Origin: Elusimicrobiota bacterium
Lineage (GTDB): Bacteria; Elusimicrobiota; Elusimicrobia; UBA1565
Length of the DNA stretch: 64,000 nt
Assembly (NCBI GenBank): GCA_041661185.1
Contig: JBAZUV010000004.1
Coordinates: 9,987-73,986, forward strand
Direction of reading: 5' to 3'
The notes beneath the pieces were generated by a model, which searched no databases, was not told the origin of the DNA, and was given only the letters and a program-made list of their open reading frames with translations. This document shows, one piece after another, positions 1 through 57,665 of this stretch; positions within the stretch are counted from its first letter, which is position 1, and each line of letters starts with the position of its first letter. The translations under genes were made by a program, and so were the position numbers.

Positions 1-256
1 GCAACGGAATAATATGACCAACTGGGAGGCCCGGCTTTGAGGCGAATTCGAGGCGCGAGGAAAGAGCATAGCTTGAGCTATGTGAGTGACGAGCAACGAA
101 GAAGGCGGCCAAAGAGGGGCCTCCCCAAAGGGCCAGGGCGCTATTGGGCTGTGACTTCGTCTCTCGTCGCTCACATACCTCCAGGTATGCTCGCTCCTCG
201 ATCCTTGTCTCGCTCCAACATCGCCCTGGCCAGTGGGTCATATTATTCCGTTGCGA
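1..256. repeat. Segment bounded by a 25-bp inverted repeat (19 perfect + 1 mismatch + 5) enclosing ~204 bp; the repeat touches the window edge
   Basis: Positions 1-19 (gcaacggaataatatgacc) are the exact reverse complement of 236-254, and pairing extends over 21-25/230-234. The AT-rich arms sit in GC-rich DNA, and internal complementary segments (tatgtgagtgacgag / ctcgtcgctcacata) are present. Confidence 0.4.
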
Positions 257-260
257 CCCC

Positions 261-641
261 TTAGCGTCCGCCCACGCGCAGGATCGCTTCCGCCTTGAGC
301 AGGAGCAATTCCAGGTCCACCGGCTTGGTCAGGTAGTCGTCGGCGCCGACCTCCAAGCCGAGGGCTTTATCCTCGGGCGACATGCGCGCGCCCGAGAGCA
401 TGATCACCGGCACCTGGCGGGCCAGTTCGTCGGACTTGATGGTCCGGCAGACGTTCCAACCCGTGGTATTCGGAAAGTTCACGTCCAGCAGGATCAGGTC
501 CGGATGCACCGAGCGAGCCTTCCCCACCGCTTCCTCGGGCTCCGCCGTGGAATCGAACTCCCAGCCCTTGAGCTCCACGTAGCGCCCGACGGCTCGCGAG
601 AGCTCTACGTCGTCGTCGATCATCAGTATCGTCTTACGCAT
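261..641 (-). CDS. Single-domain response regulator (CheY-like receiver)
   Basis: 126 aa with MRKTILMIDDD acidic pocket, LILLDVNFP phospho-Asp, MLSGA and DDYLTKP motifs. Confidence 0.85.
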   Translation of the reverse strand: MRKTILMIDDDVELSRAVGRYVELKGWEFDSTAEPEEAVGKARSVHPDLILLDVNFPNTTGWNVCRTIKSDELARQVPVIMLSGARMSPEDKALGLEVGADDYLTKPVDLELLLLKAEAILRVGGR

Positions 642-772
642 TTTCGTTTTCCCCCGGTCTTATATAACCGTCTATGCTTAGGATAAAGCCCGGGAGTTTC
701 AACCCGGTTTCAAACGGGTTTCAAACGCGTATATATAGGAAGCGACAAAGGTCACACGATGAACGACTGATC

Positions 773-950
773 CGTCATTCCGGCGGAAACCGTAATCCAG
801 GAACTATCGTCGGCTGGACCCCGGCCTCCGCCGGGGTGACAAAAAAACGTCATCCCAGCGGAAGCTGGGATCCAGGTTCCTGGGTCCCGGGTCAAGCCCG
901 GGATGACGACGGGGTTTCGTCTTTCCGGCGGAGGCCGGAACCCAGGGACT
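773..950. repeat. Cluster of ~28-bp GC-rich hairpin units in alternating orientation (REP/BIME-like), cluster 1
   Basis: Units match GTCATYCCGGCGRAAGCCGGGAYCCAGG and its reverse complement five times. Each unit folds into an ~8-bp stem with a GNRA or GAA loop. Confidence 0.6.
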
Positions 951-973
951 GCCGTCGACGGATAGGTAAGAGG

Positions 974-1660
974 TCAGGGACTGTGGAAGCGGAAGCCGAA
1001 GCCGGGAAGAGTCTCTATGCAGGAGCCCATCTTGCCCAGCTTGCGGCGAAGGCGGCAAAGGGTGAGGTCCACGACCTTCGGACGCACGGCCGAGCCCGCG
1101 CCCCACACGATCTCGAGGAGATAGTTTCTTTTAAGCACGCGCCCGGGCCTGCGCAGAAAGGTCTCCAGCAGCGCGAATTCCTTGGGCGTAAGCCTGAGCG
1201 GCTTTCCATCGACGGAGACAAGCCCTTGTTCGCTGTCCAAACTCATATGTTCGCAGCAGACTACCGCCTCCGGCTTGGGAGCGTAGTTCTCATAGCGCCT
1301 CAGGAGTCCGCGCACGCGCCAAAGCAGCTCCATGGCATGGAAAGGCTTGGCCAGGAAATCATCCGCCCCGCAGCGCAGGCAGGCAACCGCGTCCTCTCCG
1401 GTCGCGGCCGCCGAGACGAAGAGCACCGGGACCCTCTGCGTCCTGGGGTCGGCCTTGAATATCCGGCAGGCCTCCAGCCCGTTCATGCCCGGCAGGCGCA
1501 GTTCCAGCAGGACGCAGGCGGGCGGCCTGAGGAAAGAGCACTCCAGCGCCTTCTCGCCGGAAGACTCGAAATTGAGCACGAACTCATCGCCCGGCAAAGC
1601 CTCGCGGTAGAGCTTTCGGTGGGCTTCTTCGGGTTCAACTATCAGCAGGGGATTTTTCAT
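974..1660 (-). CDS. OmpR-family response regulator with atypical receiver (phospho-acceptor Asp replaced by Glu)
   Basis: 228 aa with a receiver fold (LFVSAA, AKPF) and a C-terminal winged-helix (LTPKEFALLETFLRRPGRVLKRNYLLEIVWG). The acidic pocket reads IVEPEE and the phospho-site reads LLELRLPGMNG. The start overlaps the upstream histidine kinase by 26 nt. Confidence 0.85.
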   Translation of the reverse strand: MKNPLLIVEPEEAHRKLYREALPGDEFVLNFESSGEKALECSFLRPPACVLLELRLPGMNGLEACRIFKADPRTQRVPVLFVSAAATGEDAVACLRCGADDFLAKPFHAMELLWRVRGLLRRYENYAPKPEAVVCCEHMSLDSEQGLVSVDGKPLRLTPKEFALLETFLRRPGRVLKRNYLLEIVWGAGSAVRPKVVDLTLCRLRRKLGKMGSCIETLPGFGFRFHSP

Positions 1661-3071
1661 GTTCTAACGGCAGCTCGATGAGAATAGTGGTCCCCCGGCT
1701 GACCTCGCTGCGCGCCTCGATGCTGCCTTCATGCGCGGCAACGATCTCCCGACAGATGGACAGACCCAGCCCTGTCCCGCTCCCAGCCACGCGCGAGCCG
1801 TCCGCATCGCGCACTTCCATGAACCGCGTAAAAAGATGCTTGAGATCCGCCGCGGGGATGCCCCGCCCGGTATCCGACACCGAGACTTCCACGCCGCGAC
1901 CCTTCGCCCGCGCCTTGAGCGTGATGGTCCCGCCCCTGGGAGTGAACTTGACGGCATTGGAAAGGAGATTGACGAAGACGCGCGTCATCATCGCGGGATC
2001 CCACTGCGCCTTCGGAAGCGAAGGGTCCACGGCATTCTCGATCTTGAGCCCCTTGTCCTGGGCCGCGGGCTTGAGCAGGCGCACGGCCTCATCGATGAGC
2101 GGATGGATGGAGATCTCCGCGCGCTGGATATGGATCTCGCCGCCTTCGCGCAGGCGCGCGCGGTCGAGGATGTCCTCGGCCATGAGCGCCATTCGCCGCG
2201 CGCTCACGAGGATGCGGTCGATGGAGTCCTGGCTCTCGGGCTTGAGCTTATCGCCCTCCTGCGCGCGCAGGAGCTGGGCATGCGCATGAATGGCGGCCAG
2301 GGGCGCCTTGAGATCATGCGTGAGGCCCGCGGTCATATGCTCGCGCGCCTCCTGCAGGAGCTGAAGACGCTCGACCATGAGGTTGAATACCCTCCCAAGC
2401 GAGCCCAGCTCATCCTTGCCGTCGGCCTTCGTCCGCACCGAAAGATCCCCCTCCCCGATGCGCAGCGCCGTCTGAGAAAGATCGTGGATGGATCGGTTGA
2501 GGCGCCAAGCCAGAAGGAACGCCCCCCCCAGCGCCAGGATGGAGACCGGCACCGCGGCCAAGGCTTGGCGCGCGATCGTGGCCTTCATGGCATCCAGAAG
2601 CTCCCGGTCGAGCGCCCCCTCGGAATAGCCGACGATGGCGAAGCCGAAGAGGACGCCGTCGACGTTCACGGGCCGCGCCCACTCCAGCATCCGCTCGCCG
2701 TTCTCCGCGCGGAGCAGCCCTTTGGAGTCCGCCAGGCGCTCCGATCCGATGAAGGAGCCGACCATGGAGCGGTCTCCGCGGAAAAGAGCGCTGTGCAGGC
2801 GCACGCGGCCGTCTTTCTCAACGAAGAGGCTGTAGCGGACCTTGGGATCCTCGGACAAGGCGCGCATGTAGTTGACGACGGGGATCTCATAGCGCCCGAC
2901 CACGGAATCCCGGCAAACCTCGGCGAAGCGCTCGACCGCGACGCCGGACTCCTGATTTCTCCGAACGAGGTTCTGCCGCCGCTGGACCACGAGCACGACG
3001 ACCATGGAGGTCAGCAGCGCGGCCTCGGTCAGGAGCAGGGCTCCAAAAGTGAACTTGGTGCGCAGAGTCAT
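1635..3071 (-). CDS. Sensor histidine kinase (TM-HAMP-HisKA-HATPase_c)
   Basis: H-box HDLKAPL and the N/G1/G2 boxes (DTGRGIP, GTGLGLSI) are present. The ORF runs to 3452, but the likely start is the ATG at 3071 (MTLRTKFTFGALLL..., which is TM1); upstream of that it would overlap the MBL gene. Confidence 0.8.
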   Translation of the reverse strand: MTLRTKFTFGALLLTEAALLTSMVVVLVVQRRQNLVRRNQESGVAVERFAEVCRDSVVGRYEIPVVNYMRALSEDPKVRYSLFVEKDGRVRLHSALFRGDRSMVGSFIGSERLADSKGLLRAENGERMLEWARPVNVDGVLFGFAIVGYSEGALDRELLDAMKATIARQALAAVPVSILALGGAFLLAWRLNRSIHDLSQTALRIGEGDLSVRTKADGKDELGSLGRVFNLMVERLQLLQEAREHMTAGLTHDLKAPLAAIHAHAQLLRAQEGDKLKPESQDSIDRILVSARRMALMAEDILDRARLREGGEIHIQRAEISIHPLIDEAVRLLKPAAQDKGLKIENAVDPSLPKAQWDPAMMTRVFVNLLSNAVKFTPRGGTITLKARAKGRGVEVSVSDTGRGIPAADLKHLFTRFMEVRDADGSRVAGSGTGLGLSICREIVAAHEGSIEARSEVSRGTTILIELPLEHEKSPADS

Positions 3072-3111
3072 GGGAGCGTGAAGGATTTTCTCCGGAGCGC
3101 GAGCCCGATCT

Positions 3112-4349: not shown

Positions 4350-4403
4350 TTCCAGGACGAATGGCCCAGATATGACCGCTTTATTATGGCAAAAATAGCG
4401 CGC

Positions 4404-4450
4404 TAGGAGCGTGTCACCCGATCACGAAAAGGAATTACTCGGACACGATC
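4404..4450. repeat. 46-bp hairpin element (copy 1) abutting the stop codon of the 2405-aa gene; candidate terminator
   Basis: ggagcgtgtcacccgatcacgaaaaggaattactcggacacgatcc has ~10-bp arms (ggagcgtgtc/gacacgatcc). A T-run follows on the transcribed strand (rc ...ctatttttgcc). It is ~85% identical to the copy at 11849-11894. Confidence 0.45.
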
Positions 4451-7400
4451 CTAGTGCATGGAGTGCAGTCGCTCGATGCGCTGGATCGTGTCGGGATGCG
4501 TGACGAAAAGGCGGAAGAAGATATCGTCTCCCGGCCCTACGACCCAGCGGCTGAGCCGGTCGAACTCCAGCTTCCAGCCCGCTCCCCTGAGCTGTTCAAA
4601 GGGATCGACCGTCATCCATGGAGAGCGCGCCGCGATCAACGGCAGTTCCTCGGCTCGGAGTTCGAAATTCTGCGGCTGCCAAGCCGTCAGAAGCCCCAGG
4701 CCCAGCGCGAGCGCGTCAGGATCCCGGGTCAAAAGAGCGCCGTCCTCATCCGCGCCTCCCTCCCGGATGCGCGAGGAACCCATCTGAAGAAGCTGGGCCA
4801 TGATCGGCGCCCAGAGCGCCGCGAACACCTTGAGCACGCCGAAGGCCGCGGCCGCGGAGACCGGCTCCACGGATTCAGGCTTCACTCCCGCCGAAATCTT
4901 GGGATGCTTCACGGCGGAGCTCCGATGCGCCTTGTTTCCGGTCAGGCGCGCCCAGCCCGACTCAATGCTGCCCAAGATCCACAGCACCCAGGAGGCGCTT
5001 AAAGCGACGGCGGCCGTCAGGCTCTCGGAAACGGCGCCGATCACCATATCGCGGTTCATGACATGGCTGAGTTCATGGCCGAGTATCCCGCGCAGGACCC
5101 TCACGCCCAAAGCCTTCAGCTCGGAAGGGGCAGCCTCTGCCACGGCCGCGCGCAGCGCAGCGCTCCCGGTTTGCCGCGAGACTCCGCGGATAGAATCGCT
5201 GATGGCGGAGCGGAACGCGTCGAAGGGGATTCCGGAAGGGTCGGACTGGTCGATCAAGCGCAGGAGGCCGTTCCTCAATCCCTCCGGGTCCAGGAGCATG
5301 CGCTCGATCTCCGGGGTGACGCCCACGACCGCCTTGCTCGGGCTCAGCCCCGCGGCGAAAGCATTAGGCACGTCCATGGGCGCTTCGATGATCTCCGGCA
5401 TGGGAATCGGCTTGCGGCCCTTGGCCTCCAGGCCCTTGTTGATGATGCCTCGAAGCTCCCGCACGACCTGGAACACCTCGGGAGCGTCTTCCTCCGAGAG
5501 GGGACCGGCCTTCATCATCTTCATGATCAGCTTCGGACTGAAATAGACCTGCAGGCCGATGAGCGCGGAAGCCGCGCCCAGATGCGCCAGAAAAGCGGTC
5601 CAGCCGAACACGGTCGCGCTGAGAAGAGCCCCGAAAGCGCCGAGCCCTCCCAATGCCAGAACGGTCTTGAACCAGTAATGATGCTCCGTACGAACCGTCG
5701 GGGCATGCTGGACCGGCTGCTTTGCAGGCTCGGGCCGCGTGGAAGGCGCTGGATTGCCCGCAGGCAGGAGCCGGCCAAGGAGACGCTCCATCCAGACGGC
5801 GGAACGATGAGGAAGGAGCGTCAGCACCGCGAACGTGACCGGCGCGGCGAAACCGGTCGCCGCCGACCAGAGCGCCGCGACCGTGAAGAGCGCGTCGAAG
5901 ACCCGGGTGCGGCCGAAAAGAACCCAGGCGATCACCATGGGAATGATCCCTGCCGGGGAGTAGCCCGTGGCCAGGGCGAAGATCGCTCCAAAAAGCGCCC
6001 AGGAATACTCCGGAAAGCGCATCCCCGGCATCTGGAAAGGCTTCCCGCTCTCAGCGGAGCGGATGACGGCTCCCAGGAAGAACGCGAGCGTGGCCATGGC
6101 CGGGACAGCGGTCAAAGCCGCCAAGCCCGCCGGCGTCAACGACCCGGCCGCTGAAACGCCCATGAGCATCCGAGGAAGCTTGCCGGCCAGCCAGGCAGCG
6201 GCGCTGCCGAGAATGCCCGGCGCTCCTTGGCCGATAAAGGCCTGTCCTGCGGCAGTCGCGGGACCTCCGGCTGTTATCGCCAAAGAAGAAAGCGTCGTGC
6301 CCATAAGCGCGGGCGCGAGAGCCAGAAGCGCGCCGAGGTACGCGCCGATCAGGACATCGAGCGCGAGCTTGACTCCCCCCAAGCGCGGGCTGTCCCTCAG
6401 AAAAAGACGCCAGCGCGCGTAAAGCGCCATGGGCAGGACGAAGACTCCCGGGCTTAAGGCCCAGAACGCGGCCGCGGGAACGATGCCGAAAATAGAAGGA
6501 AGGAACATCACTGCCGCGCCGTGCAGGAGATAGGCCGCCGCGGCCGCGGCCAGGGCCCGCGCCAATGAGAGACGGGCTTCAGCTCCGGGGCTGAGCCTGG
6601 CCGTGGAAACAACAGGCTCCGCCTTGGCCGCGGGCCCGACATGTCCGCCGTGATAAGCCTGGAACTGGAAAGCCTCGGAACGGCCGGGAACCGCTTGGGA
6701 AACAGGCGCAAGCGCATCGCGCAGGTCCGCGTCATCCAAGAGCGCGGAACGATCCGGGAGCAGGCCTTGCAAGAAGCGAGTCGTGGACTCGGGGCCTGAA
6801 TCGGCCAGCAGATGGACATTGGACAACCGCGGGTCCGCGGACTCGCCTACGGCCAGAGCCGTTGCCCGCGGCAGAGCCCGGGCCATAGCGGCATCCTGGC
6901 CCCGGGGACCGAAATCATCGCCGAAGATCAGGATGTCTTTCCGGGAGATGAGCTTCTGCTTCTGCGCCAGCCAAAAGATTTCGCGCGCCCCTCCCCCTTT
7001 GTCGGCGCGCGCCACCCAGATCTCAGGCGCGCCGCGTCCCTGCGCAGGATAGCTGAGCACCACGCGATAATCCAGGGGATAGCCCGCCGCCAGGAACGCG
7101 GGAGAGAACGCCTCATAGAGCCGCAGGACCTTCTGGTCGTCGTACCAGTCTTCGTCGGTCATCTTCAAGGCGCGGGCATGCTCCTTGAGCAACGCCTCGA
7201 TGCGCAGAGCCTCCGGGCCCTTGTCCGCGGGCCTTGAAAGGACCGGCCCTCGCGGCCGCTCGCCGCCGGCCCCGTACTGATAGAGCTCCGCCCCTCCGTC
7301 CGTGGACAAGATCATGCCGGCCCGGACGTCCGGCGGCAAGCGGTCCATGAGCAGGCTCGAAAGCCCCCAGCCCCCGCCCGTGAGCGGACGATTGCTGGCG

Positions 7401-10400
7401 AATGCTATACGAACCCCCGCGGCCTTGAGCCGCCGCAGGAGTTCGACGCGCTCGTCGGATACCGGCGAGCCGATGCCGTCGGGATTATCCATGAAGGTCT
7501 TGTCGTAGTCGAGGATCACCAAGGCCGGCGGATGAGCGCGGAAGCTCTTGATGAGCGCTCCCTGGTCCGCCTGAGGAAGGCGGGGAGAAGAGACCGCCAA
7601 GCCCAGCCCCGCGAGCAGGGCGGCCAAGCCCTTCTTGGCGCGATAAGCCCAGGAGATGGACGTAGGCGCCTCTCCGGTGCGCTCGTGCATGGAGTTCCAA
7701 ATGAAGAATGCCGCGACGGAGAGCCACACGAGCACGCCCACGGCGACGGCAGCCGCCGTCGGCAGGAAAGCTGCCGAAAGCGTCAAGGGCAGGGCCGCGG
7801 CCCATGCCCCGAGCTTCACGGCCCCCGAAGCCTTGCGCGCCAGGAACTTCCCTTCCGCGAAGTCCACCTCCACGCTGTCGCCTTCCTGGATGCGGCCTTC
7901 AAGCTCCGCGTCCACGAACGCGTCGTAGACCTGGCGCTCGATCATCTGCTTAAGAGGCCTCGCGCCGTAGATGCGGTTCGCGTCGCTGGAAGCCTCGTCG
8001 ATGATGCGCTTGCGCGCGGCCTCGGTGAGGGAGGCCGTCATCCTCTTGAGCCCGAGGATCTTGGAGAAGTCGGCCAAACGCAGGTCGAGGATCTTCTCGT
8101 AGCCGGCCCGGTCCAGATCCGAGAAGACCAGGACGTTGTCCGCGCCGATGCGGTTGAAGAACTCGGGGGGCACGGCCTTCTTGAACGCATCCAGATAGCG
8201 CTGATGCCGCAGTTCGCCGACGGGCGGCGTGGACATGGGACCCGGCTGAGAGATGCTTCCTCCGAGGTTCGAGGTCATCAGGATGATGGTGTTGGAGAAA
8301 TCCACCACATGCCCCTGCCCGTCGGTCATGCGGCCGTCCTCGAGCACCTGGAGGAATATCTTGAGCACGTCGGGATGCGCCTTCTCCACCTCGTCGAGCA
8401 GGATGACCTGATAAGGGTTGCGGCGCACGGGCTCGGTGAGCTGGCCTCCGTCCTCGTAGCCCACGTAGCCGGGCGGAGCGCTGATGAGCCGGCTGACGTT
8501 CTGCTTCTCCATGTACTCGGACATGTCCAGCCGGGTCATGCTGGCCTCGGACTGGAAAAGGAAGCGCGCCAGGGAGCGCGCCAACTCGGTCTTGCCGACG
8601 CCCGTGGGGCCGAGGAAGGCGAAGACGCCGATGGGCTGCTTGGGATCCTTATAGCCCATGCGCGCGCGCCGCACGGCGCGCACCACGGATTCCACGGCCG
8701 CATCCTGGCCGATCACCGCTTTCTTGAGATCCTCGTCCAAGCGCCCCAGCATGGCCTTATCATCCTTCGAGAGCTCTTGGACCGGGATGCCGGTGCGCAG
8801 GAACACCTCGAAAGCCGCGTCCGCGGGCAGGACCTCCTTCTTGCGGCTCTCCTTGCCTGAACGGCCGGATTCCTCGACCTGGAGCTGGACCTCGCCGGCC
8901 GCGTCGTCCATGAGATCGAGCGCGGAGTCCGGAAGGCTCCGGTCCTTGAGATAGCGCGCAGCCAGACGCACGATCTCCCGGACGGTCTCCGCGGGGATGG
9001 AGACTCCGTGCTTGTCCTCATAGCGGAACTTGACGCCGGAGAGGATGTCGACGGCCTCCTGCTCGCTGGGAGCATCGAGCCGCACCTCTTGGAAGCGGCG
9101 GGCCAAGGCGCCGTCCGCCTCGATCTTGCGGTATTCCGAAAGCGTGGTGGCGCCGATAACCGAAACCTCGCCGACGAGCGCTTCCTTGAGCATGCTCGCC
9201 GCGTCGGTCGAGCCCTCGCTGTTCCCAAGCCCAAGAATGGTATGGAGTTCGTCGATGAAGAGGATGACGCGGCCGTGGGAGTTCTTGGCCTCCCGGAGCA
9301 CGTCCTTCATTCTCTGCTCGAACTGCCCGCGCAGAGTGGTCCCGGCCAGCATCGCGCCCAGATCGAGCTTGACGATGGACTTGCCGTAGAGCGAAGGGAT
9401 CTCCCCGGCCGCGATGCGCTGCGCCAAACCCTCCACGATCTTGGTCTTGCCCACGCCCTTCTCTCCCGTGACCACGGGATTGTTCTTCTCCACCCGGCCC
9501 AGGACCTTGACCATCTGCCGGATCTCCTGGTCGCGGCCGATGAGCGGGTTCAAGCGTCCCGCAGCGGCTAAAGCCGTGAGGTCCACTCCGAATTTGTTCA
9601 GGTTCGGGAACTCCGAGAGCCCGAGCTTGGGATAGCCCTTATCCGTTCCGGCCGGGACGATCGGCGGAGCCTTCTTCTCAGGAATCGGCGCGAAGCTGCC
9701 TTCCTCTCCCACGATGAGGTCGTCATCATCGACAAACGCAGACGGATCCTCGGGCTGCAGAAACGCTTCATCGGCATGGCCCAATTCCGAGATCGCGAAC
9801 TCCCGCAGATGCTCGAAACTCCTGCGCGCCTCCAGCGACCCGGCTCCCTGCCCGGGCTTCGCCGCATCCAAGAGCTGGACCATCGACGTCAAAACATCCT
9901 TTGAAGGCGGCTGAGGCGCCGCCCCGACGGAATAAGAAGCCCCGTTCAGGTATTCCCTCAGCCTCGACATCTGGTCCCGGGTCTGGACCACGCCCGTCTC
10001 TCCCAGAGGGCGCCCGGCCAATCCCTTTTCAAAGAAGCTCAGCAGGTCGGAGATCACCCACAGCGCCGCGTTCCCGCGCAATGCCGAGGCCTGCCCCTCA
10101 TTGGGATGCGCCCGCCCGAAGAGCCCCCGGTAGCGCTCCAGCATGCCCACGGCCTGTTCGGCGCGGTAGAAGGCCTGCAGATGAGCGTTCTTGCCGTTCT
10201 CGTTGAGAAGGATCGCGACATGGATCAGCAGGGAGTTGGCTGTTTCATCGTCAAAATGCAAGTTCACGGCGCCGGGCACGCGGAGATTGCCGAGCGATTG
10301 AATCTCCACGATCATCTTCGCGCCGTTATGCAGACGGACCCGCCTTCCCGTTTTATGGGATCCCGCCTCACCCGCCGCATGCTCCTGGAGCAGAACCATC

Positions 10401-11668
10401 AGCGCGCCGTAGGCTTCCAGGCGGTATCGCCCTTCGGAAGAAGCGGAATCCTCGTTCTTGGCCAAGGCCGTCAGCATCCCTTGGAAAGATTCAACAGCCC
10501 CGCGAGAGAAGCGGGCCGGCGCATGGCCGAGGTCTTCATACGCATCCTGGATCTGGGAGCGCAAGGACTGGAACAGCTCGCGCTCCTTGGAACCCGCGGG
10601 CAGTCCCTCAACGTGGGCCGCGCTCAGATCCATCAGCGCATTGAGCGCCGCGGCATTGAAGAGGATCTCCGCCTGCTCCTGGTCGGGATGCTGCTCTCCG
10701 AATATCTCCCGGTAGCGTTCATAGTCTTCTCTCGCGCCGGCGAAAAATAGCATGGCGGACAACGCTCCTTTCGCGCCGGCGGCCATGCCCGCGATCCCCT
10801 TGCGCACCTCGGCGCGCACGGATCGTCCGTCGAAGACCTCTTTTCCTGAACGCTCGACCTTCCCTTCGCTCAGGTCGAGCAAAAGGAAATCGCCGCTGCG
10901 CAGCGCCGCCAAGCGTCCCTCTCCAGCCAGTATCGCGAGCATCCGCCGGAGCTTGTCCCTGCCCCAGCCGGCGGACACTGCCGCAGACTGCGCCGCCAGC
11001 ATGACCGGCGAACCGGGTTTGACCCGATTGCTCAGGTCCATGTAAAGTATCCGCGCATCGCGCGCGTCATAGGAGGAAGCCTCCGGCGCATCGCCCGAGA
11101 CCGCGCCGGGAGTCAGGTCCCCCGGCAGCGGCTCGGGCTGAGCATCCTTGACCGCATCGAAGAGGGCTCCGGCCGCGGTCTTCGCAGTCGAGAGGTCCGC
11201 GCGAAGGATGGAAGGCAGAGAGTTCACGAACGCCTGCAGCCGACGGACGCTTGCGGCGCCGCGCGTCTTTGCGAAGATCAGCGCCTTCGCATCCGCGCTC
11301 GCCGCCGGCGCTTCGACCGCGGGAGCGAGCAGCGTCGGCGATCCCTCCCTGGGAACAAACCCCTGCGGCAGGACCCCAGGGGCCTTGACGTCGACTCTCT
11401 GGATCGGAAGGATGGAAGACCTCTCAAAAAATGAACTCTCCGGCATGATCTTGACGCCCTGCATAGGCGCGCCCGACATCGCCCCATTCCCAAACGTCCC
11501 GGGAACCGCCAAAGGAATGACCATTACGTCCGCAGCCGGAAGTTTGACGGTCTGGGCGGCGGCTTGCAGCGCGCCCAGGCCCGGACAGGTCCAGATCAGC
11601 GCGGCGCACATGATGATGGAAACAGCTCGAGGAATCTCCGCCCGGATCTTCAGAAAATATGGCTTCAT
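4451..11668 (-). CDS. 2405-aa multidomain protein: N-terminal hydrophobic segment, Clp_N-like repeats, ClpA/B-type double AAA+ (D1+D2), 2 TM, HAD-like phosphatase domain, ~8 TM, C-terminal HtpX/M48 zinc-peptidase domain
   Basis: A single stop-free frame of 7218 nt. D1 has Walker A GEKGVGKT (aa 735) and Walker [10 protein letters not shown]2 has Walker A GPTGVGKT (aa 1019), Walker [12 protein letters not shown] and sensor [10 protein letters not shown]. The HAD motifs are ILDYDKT, ASNRP and FGDDFG..DAAM. The M48 motifs are [28 protein letters not shown] and a C-terminal [11 protein letters not shown]. Confidence 0.7.
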
Positions 11669-14432: not shown

Positions 14433-14512
14433 GGTGCCAGGCGTCAACTTGATTGAAATTCAACTTGCTCGGCCGAGCAAGTTGAATTTCAATCAAGTTG
14501 ACGCCTGGCACC
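14433..14512. repeat. 80-bp perfect palindromic element (copy 1) with GGTGCCAGG / CCTGGCACC termini
   Basis: ggtgccaggcgtcaacttgattgaaattcaacttgctcgg|ccgagcaagttgaatttcaatcaagttgacgcctggcacc is exactly self-complementary and identical to 59681-59760. It lies between the pseudouridine synthase and the kinase genes. Confidence 0.8.
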
Positions 14513-14533
14513 GGCATTCGGCATACTGGCGGC

Positions 14534-15844
14534 ATGTTCCGGCTTGCATTCCTCCTTCTGGCTGGACTCGCCCAAGCCTCGCCCCCGGCTGGGTCCAACA
14601 GTCTTTCTCTCATCCGCGATTCGTCGGAGCCCTCGGAAACAGCCTCCAGCCGGACCCCTGACGCCGGGAACGCGGTCAGCCCCGAAGATAAGGAAAGCTC
14701 GGAAGTCCCCCTGGAGAGAGCCAGGACGCTGCTCCCGAATGCGCCGCTGCTCAGCGGCGCACGCGTCGAATTGCCGCAGACGCCCCAGTCCTCCCACCCC
14801 CCTTCCCAGCCTCCGCCGCCTCGCAGCGGCTTCGCGGCCGCGCCCTCGGATGCCTGGCAGCTGCTCGATGCCGTGGCCGAGCCGCGTCCCGACGCGGCTC
14901 CATGGACCATTCTCGCGCTCCTGAGCCTGTCGACTCTCGCTTGCCTGGGACTTTCCCGGATCCGCCGCAGGCCGGTTGAAGAACCGGCGTCCGCGTCCCC
15001 GGCGGACAACGATCTCCTCGCCGGGAAATACGAACTTTTGCGCATCATCGGCAAAGGCGCGATGGCCGATGTCTGGGAAGCCGCGGACCGTTCGCTCGCC
15101 CGCCGAGTGGCCGTCAAGAAGATCACCTCGCAGCAAGCGCATCCTATCGATGAGGCCCGCGCCTTGGCCTCCCTTCATCATCCTCATATCCTGAGCATCT
15201 ATGAGGTGCTCGATGTCCCCCAAGGGCTCTACCTGGTCTTCGAATTCGTCTCGGGAAAGACCCTTCAGCAGCTACTCGTGGAAGAACACCGCTTGGATCT
15301 TGAGCGCGCCAAAGCCGTGCTCCTGCCGGTCTGCTCGGCCCTGGCGGCCGCTCACGACCGCTGCATCGTGCACCGGGACCTCAAACCCGCAAACATCATG
15401 CTTTCCGACGATGGGAATATCAAGGTGATGGATTTCGGCATCGCCTTGAGGATCGGGACATCGCAAGCTCCTGCCGTTGGAACGGATGGAGTTTCCCATC
15501 CCGGCAGCAGGGCTTCCTCCTTCGAAGGGACGCCGGCCTACATGGCCCCGGAAGCGCAAGACGGCTGCGTGAGCCCGTCCTGCGACGTCTATTCCCTGGG
15601 AGTCTGCCTCTACGAGCTCTTATCCGGCGAGCGTCCTTTCGGGCAGGTCTCCCTGCCCCAGAAGCTCGTGCGCGCCTATCCCCGACTCAGCACGCGCGTC
15701 CCGGGCCTGCCGAAGGACGCGGATGCGCTCATCGACGCGGTCTTGGACCCGGATCCCCGCACGCGGATGAAGGATGTCCGCGCTTTCCGCCGAGTATTGG
15801 AATCTATCGTGTTGGAAACAGAAACAGTCCGGCCGCGCCCATGA
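14534..15844 (+). CDS. Hanks-type Ser/Thr protein kinase, membrane-anchored
   Basis: Kinase motifs are GKGAMADVWEA, VAVKK, HRDLKPANIML, DFGIA and APE. It has an N-terminal signal/TM, a Pro-rich spacer and a TM (WTILALLSLSTLACLGL) ahead of the kinase domain. The ATG at 14534 (MFRLAFLLL) is preferred over the ORF start at 14498, which lies inside the palindrome. Confidence 0.85.
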   Translation: MFRLAFLLLAGLAQASPPAGSNSLSLIRDSSEPSETASSRTPDAGNAVSPEDKESSEVPLERARTLLPNAPLLSGARVELPQTPQSSHPPSQPPPPRSGFAAAPSDAWQLLDAVAEPRPDAAPWTILALLSLSTLACLGLSRIRRRPVEEPASASPADNDLLAGKYELLRIIGKGAMADVWEAADRSLARRVAVKKITSQQAHPIDEARALASLHHPHILSIYEVLDVPQGLYLVFEFVSGKTLQQLLVEEHRLDLERAKAVLLPVCSALAAAHDRCIVHRDLKPANIMLSDDGNIKVMDFGIALRIGTSQAPAVGTDGVSHPGSRASSFEGTPAYMAPEAQDGCVSPSCDVYSLGVCLYELLSGERPFGQVSLPQKLVRAYPRLSTRVPGLPKDADALIDAVLDPDPRTRMKDVRAFRRVLESIVLETETVRPRP

Positions 15845-18800
15845 CCCAGCGCTTGAAGACGTCCCTCACGGCCTGCCGCCAGCCCCGCGCCGGCGGAAGG
15901 TCCGCGGACCTTGCCGCGAAAAACCCGTAACGCTCCCGCGCCCGGCTCATCATATCCCGCGACTGCGCGATCACCCGCTCCGGTTCCTTGAGTTCCTCTT
16001 CCAGCGCCGCAAGCGCGCGCTTCTCGTCGATGAGCCCCGCCCCAGCCTCCAGAAGACCCTGTCCGGCCAAAGGAGCGGCGGTGCGGGCGATCAAGGACTC
16101 CAGGTAGAAGCTGTAGCCGTCGGGCAATCCATCGGCCTTCTCCCGAAGCACCGCCGCCATCTTCTCGATGAGCAGCGCGAATTTCCCGGTGGTATGTTCG
16201 GCCGCGACCGAAGTCCCGGAGAACGTGCGGTAAAGAGGCTTCCCCTGCCACAAGACCGTGGTGGGAGCGTCCTTGGCTTGCTGGGCGAGCTTGGAAGCGA
16301 AGGCCGAGGCGATCTCATAGGGATTGGGCATGCCGAACGCCACGGCTCCGCCGTAGTCCACCCAGGAAAGCGCCGCGGAATCCGCGGAACCCCTTGCCGA
16401 ATAGAAAGCCAGGGCCCCGGATTTATCCACGGCTCCCACGCGGATGGCGAGTTCGGCCTTGGCCGGGACATCCAGGCTTCCGGGCGAGGGCCCTTCATTG
16501 CCCGCCGCGGCGATCACCGTGATGTTCTTGAGCCTGAGCGCATCCACGAGCCTGGCGAACGGAGAATCCGCCCTCCCCTGACCGCCGAGGCTCAGGTTCA
16601 CGATCATCGGAGTCTTAAGCGGGTCTTGGACCAGGCTCGCGGCCCATTCCAGCCCGGCCATGACCATGGCATCGGTCCCGCCGTCCGCGCTCAGGACTTT
16701 CCCGACCGCGAAGTCCACGTCGGGCGCCATGCCCTCGTAGGGAGAGCCCTCCACGCTGCGTCCGCCCACGATGCCCATGCCGTACGTCCCGTGGCCGAGA
16801 GCCTCTCCATCGACCGCGTTCCCCGGAGCCGTAAAATTCCTCTTGCCCTTGATGCGGTCCCCGGCCAAGGCCGGATGCGAAAGATCCGCGCCCTCGTCGA
16901 GATAAGCCACGAGCACGCCCCGGCCCGTCAGGCCCGAAGCCGCCCGTATCTCCGGGATGCCGGAAAGAGGGCCGGTCTCATTGAGCAGAGGATAGACCGG
17001 CCGCGCCTTATGCACCCTCCAGCCCTTGGACTCCAGCTCCGCGGTGAAGGCCAGGACCTGCGTATCCGGGACATTCACCCATAGCGCCTGCGCATTCGGG
17101 AAAGCCGCCTGCAAATCCGCCTCGAAACGCTCCATGACGGCCGGCTCCAAGCCGTAACCCGCGGCCGCGCTGAGCGCCGCGCTCTTGGCTCCGCCGCGAA
17201 GATCCTGGAAGCGCTCCACGCGCGGCGCAAGAAGGCCTTCTTTCGTGTTCGCGCGCGGAAGCTCGAGTATCAGATGCAGAGGCCCAAGATTCGGGTCCAC
17301 GCCCGCCACGCCCGCGCCGCCGCGGTCCTGGACCGGAGTGGGAAGATCGAGCGGGATATCCAGGATCTTGGCCAGCGTCGAGACCAGCTCGCCCAAAGCC
17401 CCCGGCCGGCCCGCCGCGGCCTTATGCGCCTGGACGAAGCCCGCGGCGCTCTCGCGCAGAGGCGGCTTCTTCAACCGCGTCTTGAACGCCGCGGACCGGT
17501 TCGCGGTCCGGAAGAACTTCGAGATCGTGCGCGTCAGCGCGAGGTTCCCAGGACCCGCCGCAGCCAAGAGAGCGCAAACGGCTCCGTCCGTGATCAGGGC
17601 CTGGTTCAGGTTGGCGAGCTCCGTGAGCGACGCCGCGGCCAGATGGCGGATATTGCCGCGCTCCGAGGCGTCCGCGACGCGGCCGGCCAAAGCCTCCACG
17701 ACCTCCGGCGAAGCGCGCCCGCCCAGCTGTCCGGCCAGCCACACGGCCGTAAATCGCGTCTTCTTATCAGGATTCGTCATCTCCGCGCGGATCCTGGGCA
17801 GGCCGGAGACATCCCCATGCCGGGCCAGAGCATAGGCGGCATAAAGCCCGACGTCGGGCCGCTCATCGCCGCACGCCTTGCGCAGAAGTTCATCGGCGCC
17901 GTAATGCGGGATCTCGGCCAAAGCCAGGAAAGCCGTCTGCCGCACGCGGCCGTCCTCATCGCTCAACGCCGCCGCGGCCAAGTCCAGCACGGCCTCCGGC
18001 GCCTTGAGGTTCATGAGCGTGAAGGCCGCATAGAAGCGGACCACCCAGACCTCGTCTTTGAGCGCCTGCCTCAGTTCCGGGGCCGCCTGCGCCCGGAGCT
18101 GCGCGAAGCGGGCCTGGACCGACTGCTCATCCTGCGCGGAAACAGCCTCAGGGACCGCCTCATCATCATCCTCGGAAGGTTCTTCGGAGGCGCCTTCCGC
18201 GCGAGCGTCGCGCGAGCGAGCCGCGTTCTGCCGGCCGACCTCCGCGGCGCCATTAAAGACCCGGTCCTCCAGGCGCTGGACCTGCGCGGCGCGGTCGATC
18301 CAAGCCCAGGAAGGAACAGGGCTCGCCGCGGCCAATCCCGCGGCAGCGGCGAGCACCCTGAAAAGCTTAAAGCGCGAAACGCCCGGCGCCGGGCCGAAAG
18401 TCTCTGCCGCGAGCTTGACGGCCGCCAGCGCGTCCACGAAACCCGCCCCCTGGAAAAAAACAGGGACGCGCATATCCACCGCGGAACGCATAAGCAGCAT
18501 CTTCACGCAGAAAGACAGCTGATCGCGGAAATACTCGTACGCCGCGGAGCCGGCGCCGATGACCTTGCGGACGGCCTGCTTGACCAGCAATGCGATGGCC
18601 GCCACCTGGGGATTGGCCATGGAGGACCCGGCCATGCGGGTATGGAGCCCGTCCTCCGTATTGGAAGGGCCCGGCGGCATATCCTTGGAACGGACCGAGG
18701 TGATGCCCTGCGAATAGACGTCCTTGTTCCCCGGAAGAGTGGTCACGTCCCCGCCCAGCGCCGTGATGTCCGGCTTGAGGACCCAGCGCGTGAGTCCGTA

Positions 18801-21800
18801 GCGCTTGAAGCGGCCGTCCAATGCCGGCCCCACCGAAGAGTAGAACGCGGTCTCCGGTACGCCGTCGTCGAGGCTTTTGGCCGCGGCGCCCACGTCGATC
18901 ATGTTCCGGGCGTTGGCGGGCTGGCTCAAGGTCTTATTGAACGGACCCGCGTTCCCGCTCGATCCCGTGCCGATGAGCGGCTCCCCGGAAGCGCTCTTCT
19001 GCTCCAAGAGATGCGAGAAAAACTCAGCCAAGGGCGCATCGCTGTCCCCGGGACTGCCGAGGCTGACGCTGACGACGTCCGAACCCCACTTCATGGCATC
19101 CACGGCCGCGGCCATGATGTCGCCGTCGGAAGCGCCCTGCCCGGCCTGGGAGAAGACCTTGCCCATGCGTCCCTCGGCCGCGGGCGCCATGCCCTTGTAA
19201 AGAGGCCCGTTGGCATAGGAGATGCCGGCCTTATGCGTGCCGTGCCCGCTCCAATCCTCGGGTCCCTCGCCCACGAAATCGATGCACTGCAGGATGCGGT
19301 CCGCGAAATCAGGATGCGTCACATCGAGCCCGGTGTCGATATCGTAGATGCGTCCGCCTTCGCCCCGGATGCGGAGCTTCCAGACCGGCACGACGTCCTG
19401 GATGATCCCGCTCTCGAGGAGCTGGACGCGGTAGCCTCCGCGGGAAGCTCCGAAGCGCACGCCGCGCGCGCCGGAAAGCCGCTTGAGCACCTTCGAGTAG
19501 GCCTTGAGCACGCTGACATAGATGCGGTTGTCTCCCACGTCCCGGCCGAAGACATGTCGGACCCGCAAGCCCGCCTGGACGAAGCGCGCGCGCTCCTGGT
19601 CGTTGAAGCCGAAGGAGCGCAGAAGATCGTCCTGGGCCGGCGCGGAAGGGTCCGTATCGAGGTTGAGCTGCGAATGAGGAAGGCTCACCCCTTTGGCGGG
19701 AGTCAGCCACAGGTTCAGGCGCGGCTCCATCTTTCGCGCCACGATCACGTGCCCGCCCTCGGCAAGGTCCACGCGCTGGACCTGGAACTCGCCGTTGTCC
19801 GAGGAAGTCCAGAACCGGAAAACCCTTTCGACCAGCGCGACTCCGGGATCGGAGGAATGGAAAGGAAGGAGCACGATCCCATGGTCCTGCAGCCCCGCGT
19901 ACAAAGCCTGCAAATAGTCTGCCAGGCCCACGTCCTGGAGCTGGGTCCCGGAGAACTCGTTCATCATCTTGTTCAAGGCCGCGGAGACTCCCTCGACCGA
20001 TCCATTGCCCCCCACATGCACTCCGATGTTGTCGCCCAGAGTCTTCAATCGCAGAGCCAGCGGCCCGCCGGACTTGAACCCTTCGCGCGAGCTCGAGCGG
20101 TTGCGCTGTTCGAGCCGATAGGCCTCGTCGATGGAGCGCAGGGCCTGCTCAAGCCGTCGGTTCTCCGCGGAGTCCTCCAAAGGCAAGGAGAGATGGACGT
20201 TCGGGAGCACGATCACCCGGTAGCGGCCGGCATGCTCGGGCGCCTGGAGGAGCCTCTTGAGCTCCGAAGGCTCCACGCGGGCGTTCTCCCGGGATGCGAA
20301 CCCGGTCATGTCCGCAGGATCGGCGACCACGAGCCCTTTCTCCGGCAGACCGGTATAAAGACCCCGCACGCGCGCCCGTCCCTCGGAGAGCACGTCATAG
20401 GCCGAGGGGTTCAGGAGCTCCGAGCTGGAAGGCTCGACGATGAGCACGGGATAAGGAGCCCCCAGACGCAGGGAGACCTGCGCCTCCTTCAAGACGCGTT
20501 CGAGCACCGGGATGCGCAAGGACTTGAGCCACTGCCGGCTGTGCCATTCCCCGGCGCGGGCCAAGGCCTCGTCGCTCAGTCCGCGGAAGAATCCCCCGAG
20601 TCCCTTGCTGCGCCGAGCCAAGGGTTCGCGCCGGCCGTTCTGCAGATAATGCCCCATCTCGTGCTTGAGCACGGCCTGGAAGAGCCCGGGCGCGCGCGCA
20701 AGCTCGGGCCGCAGATAGATCGCATCGCCCTGCGACACGCCGAAAGCGAAACCGGAGAAGCGCCCCCTCTGCGGCCGGTAGATCCGCAGGATGCCGCGGC
20801 CGGGAGCGTATCCCAGCAATCCGGAGATCACGCTCGGATGCAGGCCCATCTCCAGGAGCTGGGCTTTGGCGAAATCCCAGAACTCGCGGTCCGAGATATC
20901 GGCCCGAAAGAAAACAGCCCAAGAGAACACGGCAAGGTCATAGAGCGCCCAGCCTGAGAAGACCGCGCCCATCACCCCCGCGGCCGCCATCGTGACCCGC
21001 AAAGGCTCCGCGAACGCGGCAAGAGCCTCCACCAGCCAGGGGGAGTGGATCAGCGCCGCATGCGCAAGGACCCAGCCGGACCCAAAGAACACGGCTGCGG
21101 CCGTTATGAAAACCGCGGCCGACAACGCCGCCAGCACCGCCGGGAACAGCACTCTGCGATACCGGATCTCCTGCTGCGCGGACTTCCGAGCCGCAAGCGC
21201 CGGGACCTGCCCGGAAGTCCGGCCCGCGCCTACAACTCCGTCATCCCGGTCCACGTCTACAACTCCGTCATCCCGGCTGACGACAGCGCCCTGCTCGTCA
21301 TTCCGGCGAAAGCCGGAATCCAGGATAAGGCTGGACCCCGGGTCAAGCCCGGGGTGACGACGGCCGACTGCACCCCGCCCTTCGCCGGGAGTCTGAATCT
21401 CCAGACCCCCTGCTTGGCCAAGTTCTCCTTGCCCGCCGAGACGGCGCGTGAAATCCTCGGCCGCGGCCTGCTGGGAAGCTTCGATCCCTCCATCCGCAGC
21501 CTGATCCAAGAATGAAGACGGCCCGCGCAGAGCCTTCCATAAACGCCCGGCTCCGCGGACGAACAAACGCACGACCCCTTTGCTCGCTTCATCCTTGCGG
21601 CCAACTTCGTCATCTCTGCTCGCGTCTACAACTCCGTCATCCCGGCGAAAGCCGGGACCCAGCAGTAGCCTGGACCCCGGGTCAAGCCCGGGGTGACGAG
21701 AGTAAAGGGTCTTGCCATTCACTGCGCCGGAAGCTTCCTGCTTATCGGGAAAGATCTCCATCTTTGGGACATCCACAGATACGCCCACGCCTGAACCCGC

Positions 21801-22090: not shown

Positions 22091-23314
22091 TCAGCGCATG
22101 AAATAAAAGCCCGACTCATCTGCGCGCGGCTCTTCGTCCAAGACCGTTTGCGGACGCGTCCGGGACTTCCCGGGCGCCGCCCTCTGCGTCCGCACGGGAG
22201 CGGGTCCGAAGCTCTCGCGCGTGCGCCGCCGACGGAAAGAATCCGAATCGCGATCCTCCGCATCAGACCGCAAGGCCGGCTCCTCCTCCGCATCCCCCTG
22301 CTCCCCATGCGCGTGCGAATGCCGCTTGGACAGAAGCGTGCTGTCGGCTCCGATGCGGAAAGGCGCGGCCACGCCCACCATCAGTATGAAGCTCTTGTAG
22401 GACTGCGTCCCATAGGCCTTGACCTCCCCGTTGAAGAAATAGCTGGGGAAGCTCCCTTCATGCTGCACGCCGAAGAGCAGCCGGCTCTGAAAAGGCTCGG
22501 GCTTGCCGCTGGCCTCGCCGTAGGAAGGCGTGATGGCTGTCTTCCAATCCGAACGCATCCAGCCGTAGACGGAGCCGGTCATGTGATTGAGCCCCACTCC
22601 GCCGAAGGGCGTCCAATGCCCGTAGGTCTGGCTGAGCATCGCGTTGACGCCGTAGCTGCGCACGTCCCACTGCAGATGCCCGGTATTGAGGCTGTCGGCC
22701 GTGAATCCCTGGGCCAGCTCCATATTGCTGAACTCGTTGTGGAAATCGAAGCGGCCGAACACGCGGTTGAAGGCGCCGCTCACGCTCAAAAGCGGCAGGC
22801 TGCCGCCGAAGAAGTGCTTGCGCACGGAGAGTCCGACGGTGTTGATCTGCCCGCCCCCCTGCGTGGATTCCGAGAGCTTGTAGCCCTTGGGAATGGTGAC
22901 GTTGACCAGGCGCAAACCCATGTCCATGCGCGAGGGCAGGCCCATGCGCATGTGCATGGTCAGATTCGGGAATATGACCTTGTCCGGGAGCATGGCCCCG
23001 GGATTCTTCTCCGCCAAGGCCCGGACCTTCATCTCCGGGAAGGACTTTTTGTCATAGGGAAGCATGCCGATACCGAAGCTCAGATCCGGCTGCACGCGCC
23101 AGGGCCGCATCTCATTGGGCGGATCGAAAGTGGAACCGGCATTGAAGGCCAAGCCTTCCGCGGTCTGCCGCGTGATCCAGGTCATGATCTGCGCGTAATC
23201 ATCCGACATGCTGGGGTTCGCCGCTCTACATACGGGCGCGCGCGCGTATAAAAAAGTCAAAAGCAGGAGAACCGCCAAAGCACGAACAGGCAGGCTGTTG
23301 CGGATATTCTTCAT
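22091..23314 (-). CDS. Hypothetical exported beta-rich protein (possible outer-membrane beta-barrel) with acidic/basic low-complexity C-terminus
   Basis: 407 aa with signal peptide MKNIRNSLPVRALAVLLLLTFLYARAPVCRA, alternating amphipathic strands, and no recognised catalytic motifs. Confidence 0.55.
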   Translation of the reverse strand: MKNIRNSLPVRALAVLLLLTFLYARAPVCRAANPSMSDDYAQIMTWITRQTAEGLAFNAGSTFDPPNEMRPWRVQPDLSFGIGMLPYDKKSFPEMKVRALAEKNPGAMLPDKVIFPNLTMHMRMGLPSRMDMGLRLVNVTIPKGYKLSESTQGGGQINTVGLSVRKHFFGGSLPLLSVSGAFNRVFGRFDFHNEFSNMELAQGFTADSLNTGHLQWDVRSYGVNAMLSQTYGHWTPFGGVGLNHMTGSVYGWMRSDWKTAITPSYGEASGKPEPFQSRLLFGVQHEGSFPSYFFNGEVKAYGTQSYKSFILMVGVAAPFRIGADSTLLSKRHSHAHGEQGDAEEEPALRSDAEDRDSDSFRRRRTRESFGPAPVRTQRAAPGKSRTRPQTVLDEEPRADESGFYFMR

Positions 23315-23346: not shown

Positions 23347-23470
23347 CGTCATCCCGGCGAAAACCGGGACCCAGCCATCCGTCTCCCCGGCGAAAGCCGG
23401 GGTCCAGCTGATCCTAGATCCCGGCTTCCGCCGGGATGACGGCCTTACCGGCTCTCGCCGGAATGACGGG
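23347..23470. repeat. GC-rich GNRA-hairpin cluster 4
   Basis: gtcatcccggcgaaaaccgggacccag, ccccggcgaaagccggggtccag, ccggcttccgccgggatgac, ctctcgccggaatgac. Confidence 0.6.
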
Positions 23471-24582: not shown

Positions 24583-24645
24583 CGTCATCCCGGCGGAAGC
24601 CGGGACCCAGCAGTTGCCTGGACCCCGGCTTTCGCCGGGGTGACG
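24583..24645. repeat. GC-rich GNRA-hairpin cluster 5 (inverted pair)
   Basis: gtcatcccggcggaagccgggacccag-cagttgc-ctggaccccggctttcgccggggtgac. Confidence 0.6.
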
Positions 24646-29656: not shown

Positions 29657-29744
29657 CGTCCCTCCAAAAACTGAAAATAGCGCGTCCTACCCATGTTTTT
29701 TAGCAGTTAATCGCCTTTTTCGCAAGTAGAAAGGCTCTCGACAT

Positions 29745-29896: not shown

Positions 29897-30005
29897 ATGT
29901 CGATTTGTGTGCGTGGGTAATACCCAAGGAAGGCCGCAGCTTTGGAGGTTCTTCTTCCCCGTTGAAAAGAGGCCTGGACTCCCGACATCGCCGAGCAACG
30001 AGACA

Positions 30006-36839: not shown

Positions 36840-36840
36840 A

Positions 36841-38364: not shown

Positions 38365-38382
38365 CCTACGTTCCTTCTTTTT

Positions 38383-38490
38383 CGTCACCCCGGGCTTGAC
38401 CCGGGGGCCAGGAGCACGGCCAAACGACTTCCCCTGGATCCCGGCTTCCGCCGGGATGACGAATTTATGGGCTTTCGCCGGGATGACGAG
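38383..38490. repeat. GC-rich hairpin cluster 6
   Basis: gtcaccccgggcttgacccggggg, ctggatcccggcttccgccgggatgac, gggctttcgccgggatgac. Confidence 0.6.
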
Positions 38491-40897: not shown

Positions 40898-40912
40898 ATA
40901 TTATAGACGGCT

Positions 40913-57556: not shown

Positions 57557-57665
57557 TCGTCATCCCGGCGAAAGCCGGGACCCAGGGACTGCCGTTCTGC
57601 CGTGATCCTGGATTCCGGCTTCCGCCGGAATGACGGCTGTAGGCTTCAGCCGGAATGACGTAACG
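57557..57665. repeat. GC-rich GNRA-hairpin cluster 7, flanked by fragments of the GGTGCCAGG palindromic family (57533-57551, 57680-57697)
   Basis: gtcatcccggcgaaagccgggacccagg, ctggattccggcttccgccggaatgac, cttcagccggaatgac. Nearby lie ttgacgccaggcgtcaa and gtgacgcctggcacc. Confidence 0.6.

Follow-up and report, generated by a model that had tools for sequence, protein, structure and literature searches.

CGTC-tagged REPs are a superfamily of short palindromic repeats described by Di Nocera, De Gregorio & Rocco (2013, BMC Genomics 14:522; PMC3733652). According to that paper, each repeat carries an unpaired CGTC (also TGTC or CCTC) tag at one end of the palindrome, a stem of 8-9 bp whose first two positions are usually A and T, a loop of 4 nt in CGTC-1 and of 5 nt in CGTC-2 to CGTC-4, and a short unpaired 3' tail, CCA. 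The repeats occur predominantly as HH dimers (tags outside), often as heterodimers, and are found between unidirectional genes, downstream of coding regions, with occasional intragenic copies. The paper describes CGTC units as more uniform than GTAG units, places them in five phyla, calls clusters of 3-5 of them rare and associates no transposase gene with them. Neisseria dRS3 is counted there as CGTC-1; dRS3 units serve as integration sites of filamentous prophages via a phage-encoded transposase or recombinase (PMC1797815; PMC3733652). A further point of reference is the Rfam family FtrB (RF02748; Francisella sRNA B), a Northern-verified RNA of 115 nt whose sequence was Francisella-specific according to its original paper.

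Here we describe hairpin repeats in a 64-kb stretch of an uncultured Elusimicrobiota chromosome, the whole of which is referred to as the window. In the ENA the window is part of a metagenome contig of 100,168 bp (record ERZ27249449, contig k141_187138), where the record coordinate equals the window coordinate plus 8200.

Results

Repeat units and their arrangement

Using an nhmmer profile built from the units, we found 18 full and 3 truncated hairpin units of 28-29 nt in the 64-kb window, along with 2-3 head fragments. Profile matches were confined to seven loci, with none elsewhere in the 64 kb above noise, and the consensus at three or fewer mismatches gave 12 matches against 0.00 expected from 100 shuffles. 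A preliminary description of this DNA had reported hairpin repeats at seven loci, and these are real, with all profile units lying inside the intervals it proposed. A further 16 kb of the contig contained no unit, giving 21 units at 7 loci in the approximately 80 kb of this genome that was covered.

The units are of two types. Type A consists of the tag CGTC, the stem arms ATYCCGGC and GCCGGRAT around the loop GRAA, and the tail CCAG, forming an 8-bp stem with a 4-nt loop; its loop variants are GAAA, GGAA and GGAG. Type B has the same tag and tail, the stem arms ACCCCGGG and CCCGGGGT and the loop CTTGA, giving an 8-bp stem with a 5-nt loop. The tag is CGTC in 17 of the 18 full units and TGTC in the remaining one. 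Some units start the stem with AC or an A.C mismatch, and the CCAG that follows the stem as a 3' tail is unpaired. The hairpin first reported is type A, but type B had been omitted; RHPGLDPGS, correctly listed at that stage as a pseudo-peptide, in fact derives from this undescribed type.

A pair of units in + then - orientation, with the tags outside, was present in every cluster, and the inverted dimer is the basic module. Clusters hold 2-5 units and are made up of inverted pairs plus extra or truncated units, separated by irregular spacers of 1-21 nt. The units had been said to alternate in orientation. Alternation is not strict: while cluster 1 reads + - + - +, cluster 4 reads + + - -, and clusters 6 and 7 read + - - with a truncated last unit.

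All five truncated copies (21239-21280, 23448-23468, 38470-38488 and 57642-57660) retain the CGTC tag and the 5' stem and are without the 3' stem and tail. Every one of them stands in tandem with a full unit, just beyond its edge. The polarity of truncation may not hold generally, the count in favour of the tag end being 5 against 0 here and 30 against 21 in other genomes, where it is confounded by large-loop variants and chance matches.

The seven clusters and their surroundings

Approximately 91.5% of the window is coding and all seven clusters fall within the 8.5% that is not, an outcome with a probability of about 3e-8 under random placement. The repeats are thus intergenic, as had been claimed. 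Each cluster is flanked by two co-directional minus-strand genes and most lie 14-50 nt past a stop codon. Window genes are nearly all on the minus strand and include two-component regulators, a Tad-type pilus operon and very large protease genes, together with purA, tsaD, an xerC/D-like gene and topA. All named best matches of PurA were Elusimicrobia/Elusimicrobiota MAG proteins, at 62-72% identity, which places the uncultured organism in this phylum. Look-ups by exact protein sequence, with TopA and with the identical PurA cluster representative, returned no record.

Cluster 1 (773..946) contains five units: a type A unit with a degenerate stem at 773-801 (+), a type A unit with the tag TGTC at 813-841 (-), a type A unit with the stem variant CCCAGC/GCTGGG at 848-876 (+), a type B unit at 879-908 (-) and a type A unit at 918-946 (+). 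It lies 28 nt past the stop of an OmpR-type regulator gene, 974-1660(-), and 132 nt ahead of the start of a receiver gene, 261-641(-). Cluster 2 (21239..21360) begins with two head-only fragments, CGTCATCCCGG, at 21239 and 21266 (+) and continues with an A/B heterodimer, type A at 21296-21324 (+) and type B at 21331-21359 (-); it is non-coding DNA directly upstream of the real start of an S8 peptidase gene. In cluster 3 (21602..21699) a degenerate head fragment is followed by type A at 21635-21663 (+) and type B at 21670-21698 (-), a dimer 89% identical to that of cluster 2 over 65 nt.

Cluster 4 (23347..23468) is a nested pair of dimers with units at 23347-23375 (+), 23380-23408 (+), 23413-23441 (-) and 23448-23468 (-, truncated). 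It is situated 33 nt upstream of gene 22091-23314(-), measured from the longest-ORF start at 23314 (the ENA call has 23209 instead). On its other side, a NarL-type regulator gene that has its own terminator ends about 390 nt away. This terminator, GGGAGCCGGGCC...GGTCCGGCTCCC then TTGTCTT (window 23165-23210; on the minus-strand transcript downstream of 23860), is separate from the REP cluster, which follows at a distance of 330 nt. In the closest relative, too, an analogous terminator that is not a REP occupies this place.

Cluster 5 (24583..24645) is a homodimer of units at 24583-24611 (+) and 24617-24645 (-), located 14 nt past the stop of a hybrid kinase gene, 24659-25789(-), and followed on the transcribed strand by GGCGTGTTGATTTTTTTG. 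A T-run follows on the transcribed strand, with a terminator-like score, at only two of the seven clusters, namely cluster 5 and, in cluster 1, unit 848-876. Cluster 6 (38383..38488) comprises type B at 38383-38412 (+), type A at 38433-38461 (-) and a truncated unit at 38470-38488 (-), between a Tad/T2SS ATPase gene (stop 38516) and a T2SSF-domain gene with a real start at about 38361. Cluster 7 (57558..57660), with units at 57558-57586 (+), 57607-57635 (-) and 57642-57660 (-, truncated), lies between gene 57710-58297(-) and gene 56476-57549(-).

The gene content around the repeats is itself unusual (4451-11668, 15804-21190 and 35946-43284 in the window, and 1-3080 of locus L203). Near the repeats are a 2405-aa protein in which a ClpB-like double AAA+ module is fused to an M48 peptidase, and a double S8 peptidase of ~1800 aa with HEAT repeats, and the ATPase of the Tad pilus operon bears an N-terminal CpaE/ParA-like domain. 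Genes with SbcC-type and JetD_C domains, possibly a Wadjet-like system, are found just past the high-coordinate end of the window.

Folding and sequence constraint

A well-formed single unit folds at -14.5 kcal/mol (z -3.3 against shuffles) and dimers fold at -41 to -55 kcal/mol (z -6 to -9.6), the homodimer of cluster 5 reaching -54.8 kcal/mol (z -9.6). Among the larger arrangements, positions 813-946 of cluster 1 fold at -88.9 kcal/mol (z -7.3) and cluster 4 at -74.6 kcal/mol (z -7.6). Cluster 6 as a whole gave a marginal fold (z -1.9), and the degenerate unit at 773-801 folded no better than shuffles (z +0.34).

Covariation was assessed on an alignment of 48 units, comprising 14 window units and non-ascertained partner units from other genomes. 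In this alignment 95.6% of stem cells were paired and compensatory two-sided changes were found at four of the eight stem pairs (43 cells); the observed covariation score was reached in none of 500 shuffles. Positions G2, T3, C4, C25, A27 and G28 were invariant in all 48 units. The stem pairing and covariation, together with the nearly invariant tag and tail, indicate that both the hairpin and its strand-specific flanks are under constraint.

Comparison with described repeat systems

By the text definitions of PMC3733652, type A fits CGTC-1 and type B fits CGTC-2, and judged by sequence the units fit as members of the published CGTC-tagged superfamily. Shared with the repeats of that paper are the CGTC/TGTC tag, the 8-bp stem usually opening with A-T, the 4- and 5-nt loops and the CCA(G) tail; the HH dimers, including heterodimers of both loop types; the position between unidirectional genes and 3' of coding regions, with occasional overlap of ORF calls; and the lack of an associated transposase gene. 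Different from that account (PMC3733652) are the host phylum, Elusimicrobiota being outside the five phyla listed there, the high local density, with clusters of 3-5 units, and the retention of the tag end by five out of five truncated copies. The repeats had initially been termed REP/BIME-like with a unit differing from that of enterobacterial (GTAG-tagged) REPs. This stands, but the unit matches known CGTC REPs and is not a new sequence.

Similarities to GTAG REPs, BIMEs and REPINs extend to the intergenic location of short palindromes, inverted pairs that can fold as one long hairpin, a dimer that is apparently the replicating unit and lineage-specific abundance. Nevertheless, the tag here is CGTC rather than GTAG, the CGTC sequence is almost constant across phyla whereas GTAG REPs are species-specific in sequence, no RAYT of the kind that goes with GTAG REPs was found near the repeats, CGTC REPs are not known to have one, and the head/tail linker motifs of BIMEs are not in evidence. 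Neisseria dRS3 (ATTCCC-N8-GGGAAT) has the same outer stem, ATTCC...GGAAT, and the same flanks. In Neisseria NIMEs, however, dRS3 is combined with 50-150-bp RS elements in long arrays, whereas the spacers here are 1-21 nt and contain no RS elements.

At gathering thresholds no Rfam family matched anywhere in the window, and the sub-threshold matches to FtrB, sX14 and mir-3155 reflected only the hairpins. The FtrB consensus does consist of a 4-nt-loop unit followed by an inverted 5-nt-loop unit, as in clusters 2 and 3, but window 21280-21373 scored 31.5 bits where the gathering threshold is 66, and its flanks bear no relation to those of FtrB; the repeats are therefore not members of that family. 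Conversely, from its consensus the Rfam 'sRNA gene' FtrB appears to be REP-derived.

Effect on gene calls

The pseudo-peptides VIPAKAGIQ, RHPGLDPGS and GFRRNDE were found in translations of the repeats, and the earlier proposal that the repeats inflate the N-termini of frames 15804-22085 and 36841-38667 was confirmed for both. In frame 15804-22085, GC3 is about 0.83, but upstream of roughly 21185 it declines to the genome average of about 0.63. One phase reaches a GC3 of 0.82-0.88 only over about 21125-21425, which corresponds to the gene start plus cluster 2, and a search of 21.2-22.1 kb for a hidden gene in the 270-bp and 390-bp stretches round clusters 2 and 3 found no frame with sustained coding GC3. 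The real start of ORF 36841-38667 is near 38361, with a signal peptide beginning MYPQAACFF. The public ENA call of the S8 peptidase starts at window 21761 and hence contains clusters 2 and 3; roughly 190 N-terminal residues of this deposited call are spurious.

Modules shared between loci and probable lineage-specific gain

Whole modules recur at separate loci. A 65-nt A/B or A/A dimer with an AGTAGC-like spacer is present at 21296, 21635 and 24583, while a 56-nt module, consisting of a full and a truncated unit, is present at 23413 and 38433 with a degenerate match (61%) at 813. The same full-plus-truncated layout is seen at 57607-57660 in cluster 7. The units at 917 and 57557 have the 10-nt post-tail sequence GGACTGCCGT in common.

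The kinase-kinase-regulator gene order is conserved in related metagenome loci, and in about 17 of them (regulator 78-95% identical) the junction between kinase and regulator, where cluster 5 is located, was REP-free. We counted 21 units in 64 kb here against 2 in 169 kb of relatives and 0 in 365 kb of more distant loci, the latter including an Elusimicrobiota relative syntenic around purA. This points to a lineage-specific expansion, with loss in the relatives as a formal alternative, since the intergenic DNA of even the closest of them is too diverged to align (kinase about 60-75% identical). The only other assembly of the same strain (Logan SRR6484324) was identical in sequence over the overlap. 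We saw neither a target-site duplication nor a transposition intermediate, nor an empty site in any near-identical strain.

Distribution in other genomes

A scan of one genome per species returned at least 119 exact 28-mer stretches across many phyla. Among the matches listed, the exact 28-mer occurred in at least 12 named higher taxa: Alpha-, Beta- and Gammaproteobacteria, Thermodesulfobacteriota (delta-proteobacteria), Chloroflexota, including several closed Dehalococcoidia chromosomes, Binatia, Methylomirabilis, Elusimicrobia, Verrucomicrobiia, Bipolaricaulota, Bacteroidota, by a MAG of the Cryomorphaceae, and a Melainabacteria-like MAG. A few of these assignments could be due to mis-binning of MAGs. 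The scan widens the known host range but leaves the picture given in PMC3733652 unchanged. Most copies in 110 loci of other genomes form + then - dimers.

We also checked viral and plasmid sequences. The motif was found in 20 stretches among 2.9 million viral contigs (IMG/VR). Plasmids gave two matches, both on large replicons, and neither extended over more than about one unit (33-36% of the 81-nt query). Given these numbers, spread by plasmid or phage carriage is unsupported. Exact copies of the 28-mer, at ~70% G+C, were seen in stretches of 43% G+C (L022 and L081) and in the 20 viral contigs (L206-L225), a mismatch in composition that suggests horizontal arrival or strong sequence constraint.

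Some units in other genomes retain the ends CGTCAYYCCGG... and ...CCGGRRTCCAG around a much larger 'loop' that contains a second hairpin or else unrelated sequence of 20-35 nt. The ends of these units behave like terminal inverted repeats round a small cargo. Examples are found in L010 (about 4400-4460), L046 (about 5600-5670), L032 (205-260), L074 (1653-1715) and L018 (-, at the 3' end of the locus).

Search for a mobilising enzyme

Pfam scans of about 40 window proteins and gene calls on 16 kb of contig flanks revealed no transposase. A search for a RAYT gene had been suggested at the outset, but it was unlikely to succeed given the lack of an associated transposase gene in PMC3733652, and none was found in the window, the contig flanks or 1.6 Mb of fetched DNA, in which the best tblastn match to E. 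coli RayT had an E-value of 0.15. Two weak N-terminal RayT alignments corresponded to a phage structural region and an amidohydrolase. No gene family was recurrent beside 199 units in 110 loci of other genomes, where the neighbouring genes were only ABC ATPases, SDRs and repeat-encoded pseudo-peptides. RAYT was thus found neither in about 80 kb of contig nor next to the 199 units elsewhere. In the literature, we found no later paper that alters the statement of PMC3733652 that CGTC REPs have no dedicated transposase.

Other palindromic repeats in the window

An 85-nt near-perfect palindrome with an AT-rich core (GGTGCCAGGCGTCAAC...GTTGACGCCTGGCACC) is present at 14433-14517 and 59681-59765; both copies are intergenic and they are 99% identical. 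Inverted termini of this separate palindrome family, at 57538-57551 and 57677-57692, bracket cluster 7, as if its REP trimer had replaced, or been inserted into, the core of a third copy. A relative is without the 85-nt insert at the purA junction, and a short-read contig of the same strain appears, from gene-call coordinates only, to end at or near the copy at 59.7 kb. This palindrome looks MITE-like.

A second kind of repeat, of 200-225 nt, is found at 29737-29936 and 50155-50378 (-), where it precedes the starts of two minus-strand genes by 80-290 nt. Both copies fold into a single hairpin of about 165 nt (-129 kcal/mol, z -9.6, and -140 kcal/mol, z -8.5), and the differences between them are compensatory, affecting both arms. 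The repeat matched no Rfam family and may be a MITE or a structured leader RNA.

Discussion

We put at roughly 85% the probability that the clusters are CGTC-tagged REPs in an uncultured Elusimicrobiota chromosome that are non-autonomous, spread as inverted dimers via a trans-acting enzyme and are transcribed as hairpins. The elements would then be essentially selfish DNA, spreading within the lineage as REPIN-like inverted dimers that insert themselves in short intergenic spacers and at times within or next to palindromes already there. The enzyme supplied in trans would probably read the single-stranded hairpin and its strand-specific CGTC...CCAG flanks, as HUH/Y1 transposases read GTAG REPs. 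We infer trans-acting spread from the invariance of the flanks, the copying of modules between loci and the presence or absence of the repeats among relatives.

Between co-directional genes, the repeats would be transcribed in 3'-UTR or intercistronic RNA and form very stable hairpins. As the clusters lie 14-50 nt past stops in probable operons, they are predicted to be transcribed as hairpins of -40 to -90 kcal/mol. Such hairpins could slow 3'-exonucleases, or help termination where a T-run follows. Going by the sequence downstream, cluster 5 and unit 848-876 may terminate transcription, whilst the clusters without a T-run more plausibly act as 3'-exonuclease barriers by analogy with enterobacterial REPs, for which that role is established. 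FtrB is Northern-verified and its consensus is the same two-unit dimer, indicating that such dimers can accumulate as stable RNA.

These properties might also be expected of host-evolved regulatory hairpins, terminators or stabilisers of mRNA 3' ends that arose in place and are neither mobile nor selfish. The position of the clusters between co-directional genes, mostly 14-50 nt past a stop codon, is in line with such an origin, as are the terminator-like T-runs after cluster 5 and unit 848-876 and the stable RNA formed by an FtrB-like dimer in Francisella. It is nonetheless improbable. Independent local evolution would not yield a 28-mer common to many phyla; the units occur in both orientations, just two of the seven clusters have a T-run, and cluster 4 sits just ahead of a gene start, about 330 nt past the upstream gene's own terminator. 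Furthermore, the orthologous junction is without units in about 17 relatives and dimer-plus-spacer modules have been copied between loci. We see only a slim chance that the main role of the repeats is instead that of recombination or integration targets for a site-specific recombinase or an IS110/Piv-type enzyme, serving the integration of phages or IS elements or favouring exchange of the genes alongside. The precedent of dRS3 in Neisseria (PMC1797815; PMC3733652) favours it, synteny with relatives is lost immediately beyond the regulator gene, at the site of clusters 4, 3 and 2, and cluster 7 is inside another palindromic element. Yet no IS, prophage or site-specific recombinase adjoins any cluster, and the motif is rare in viral contigs and plasmids. 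The sole tyrosine recombinase (60684-61586) is XerC/D-like, beside topA and in the same position in a relative. A role as targets would in any case explain the use of the repeats and not their origin, and is compatible with their being non-autonomous REPs spread in trans.

Coding repeats and CRISPR are both excluded. Long ORFs do pass through the repeats and the public S8 peptidase call takes in two clusters, but it is hardly credible that the units are genuinely coding, as repeated peptide segments of the large proteins with which they overlap: GC3 in these frames declines to the average of the genome at precisely the point where the repeats start, the same DNA can be read as differing 'peptides' in several frames of either strand, the gene at cluster 6 has a proper signal-peptide start downstream of the repeats, and the units are defined by nucleotide pairing rather than codons. 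The probability of a degenerate CRISPR array, or of another direct-repeat/spacer system, is practically nil. The repeats are short, GC-rich, palindromic and clustered, as that would require, but the units are inverted, their spacers are irregular (1-21 nt) and they number 2-5 per cluster over seven loci; no cas genes were found in the window. This agrees with the preliminary description, which had named CRISPR as the alternative to its own reading.

In practice these CGTC REPs matter mainly for gene prediction, which they inflate by keeping reading frames open. They also break short-read assemblies, a contig from another sample ending inside cluster 1. Recognising them would lead to better annotation of Elusimicrobiota MAGs. 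The repeat family itself was already described, and the Elusimicrobiota are a phylum added to its host range. As a case of lineage-specific expansion, the window bears on the question from 2013 of what copies CGTC repeats without a linked transposase. It is possible, though we think it unlikely, that a widely distributed non-RAYT enzyme actively copies these hairpins, with an almost invariant 28-nt REP that has undergone a burst in this lineage and not in its relatives. If this is true, a recently expanded lineage like this one would be a good place to find the copying enzyme.
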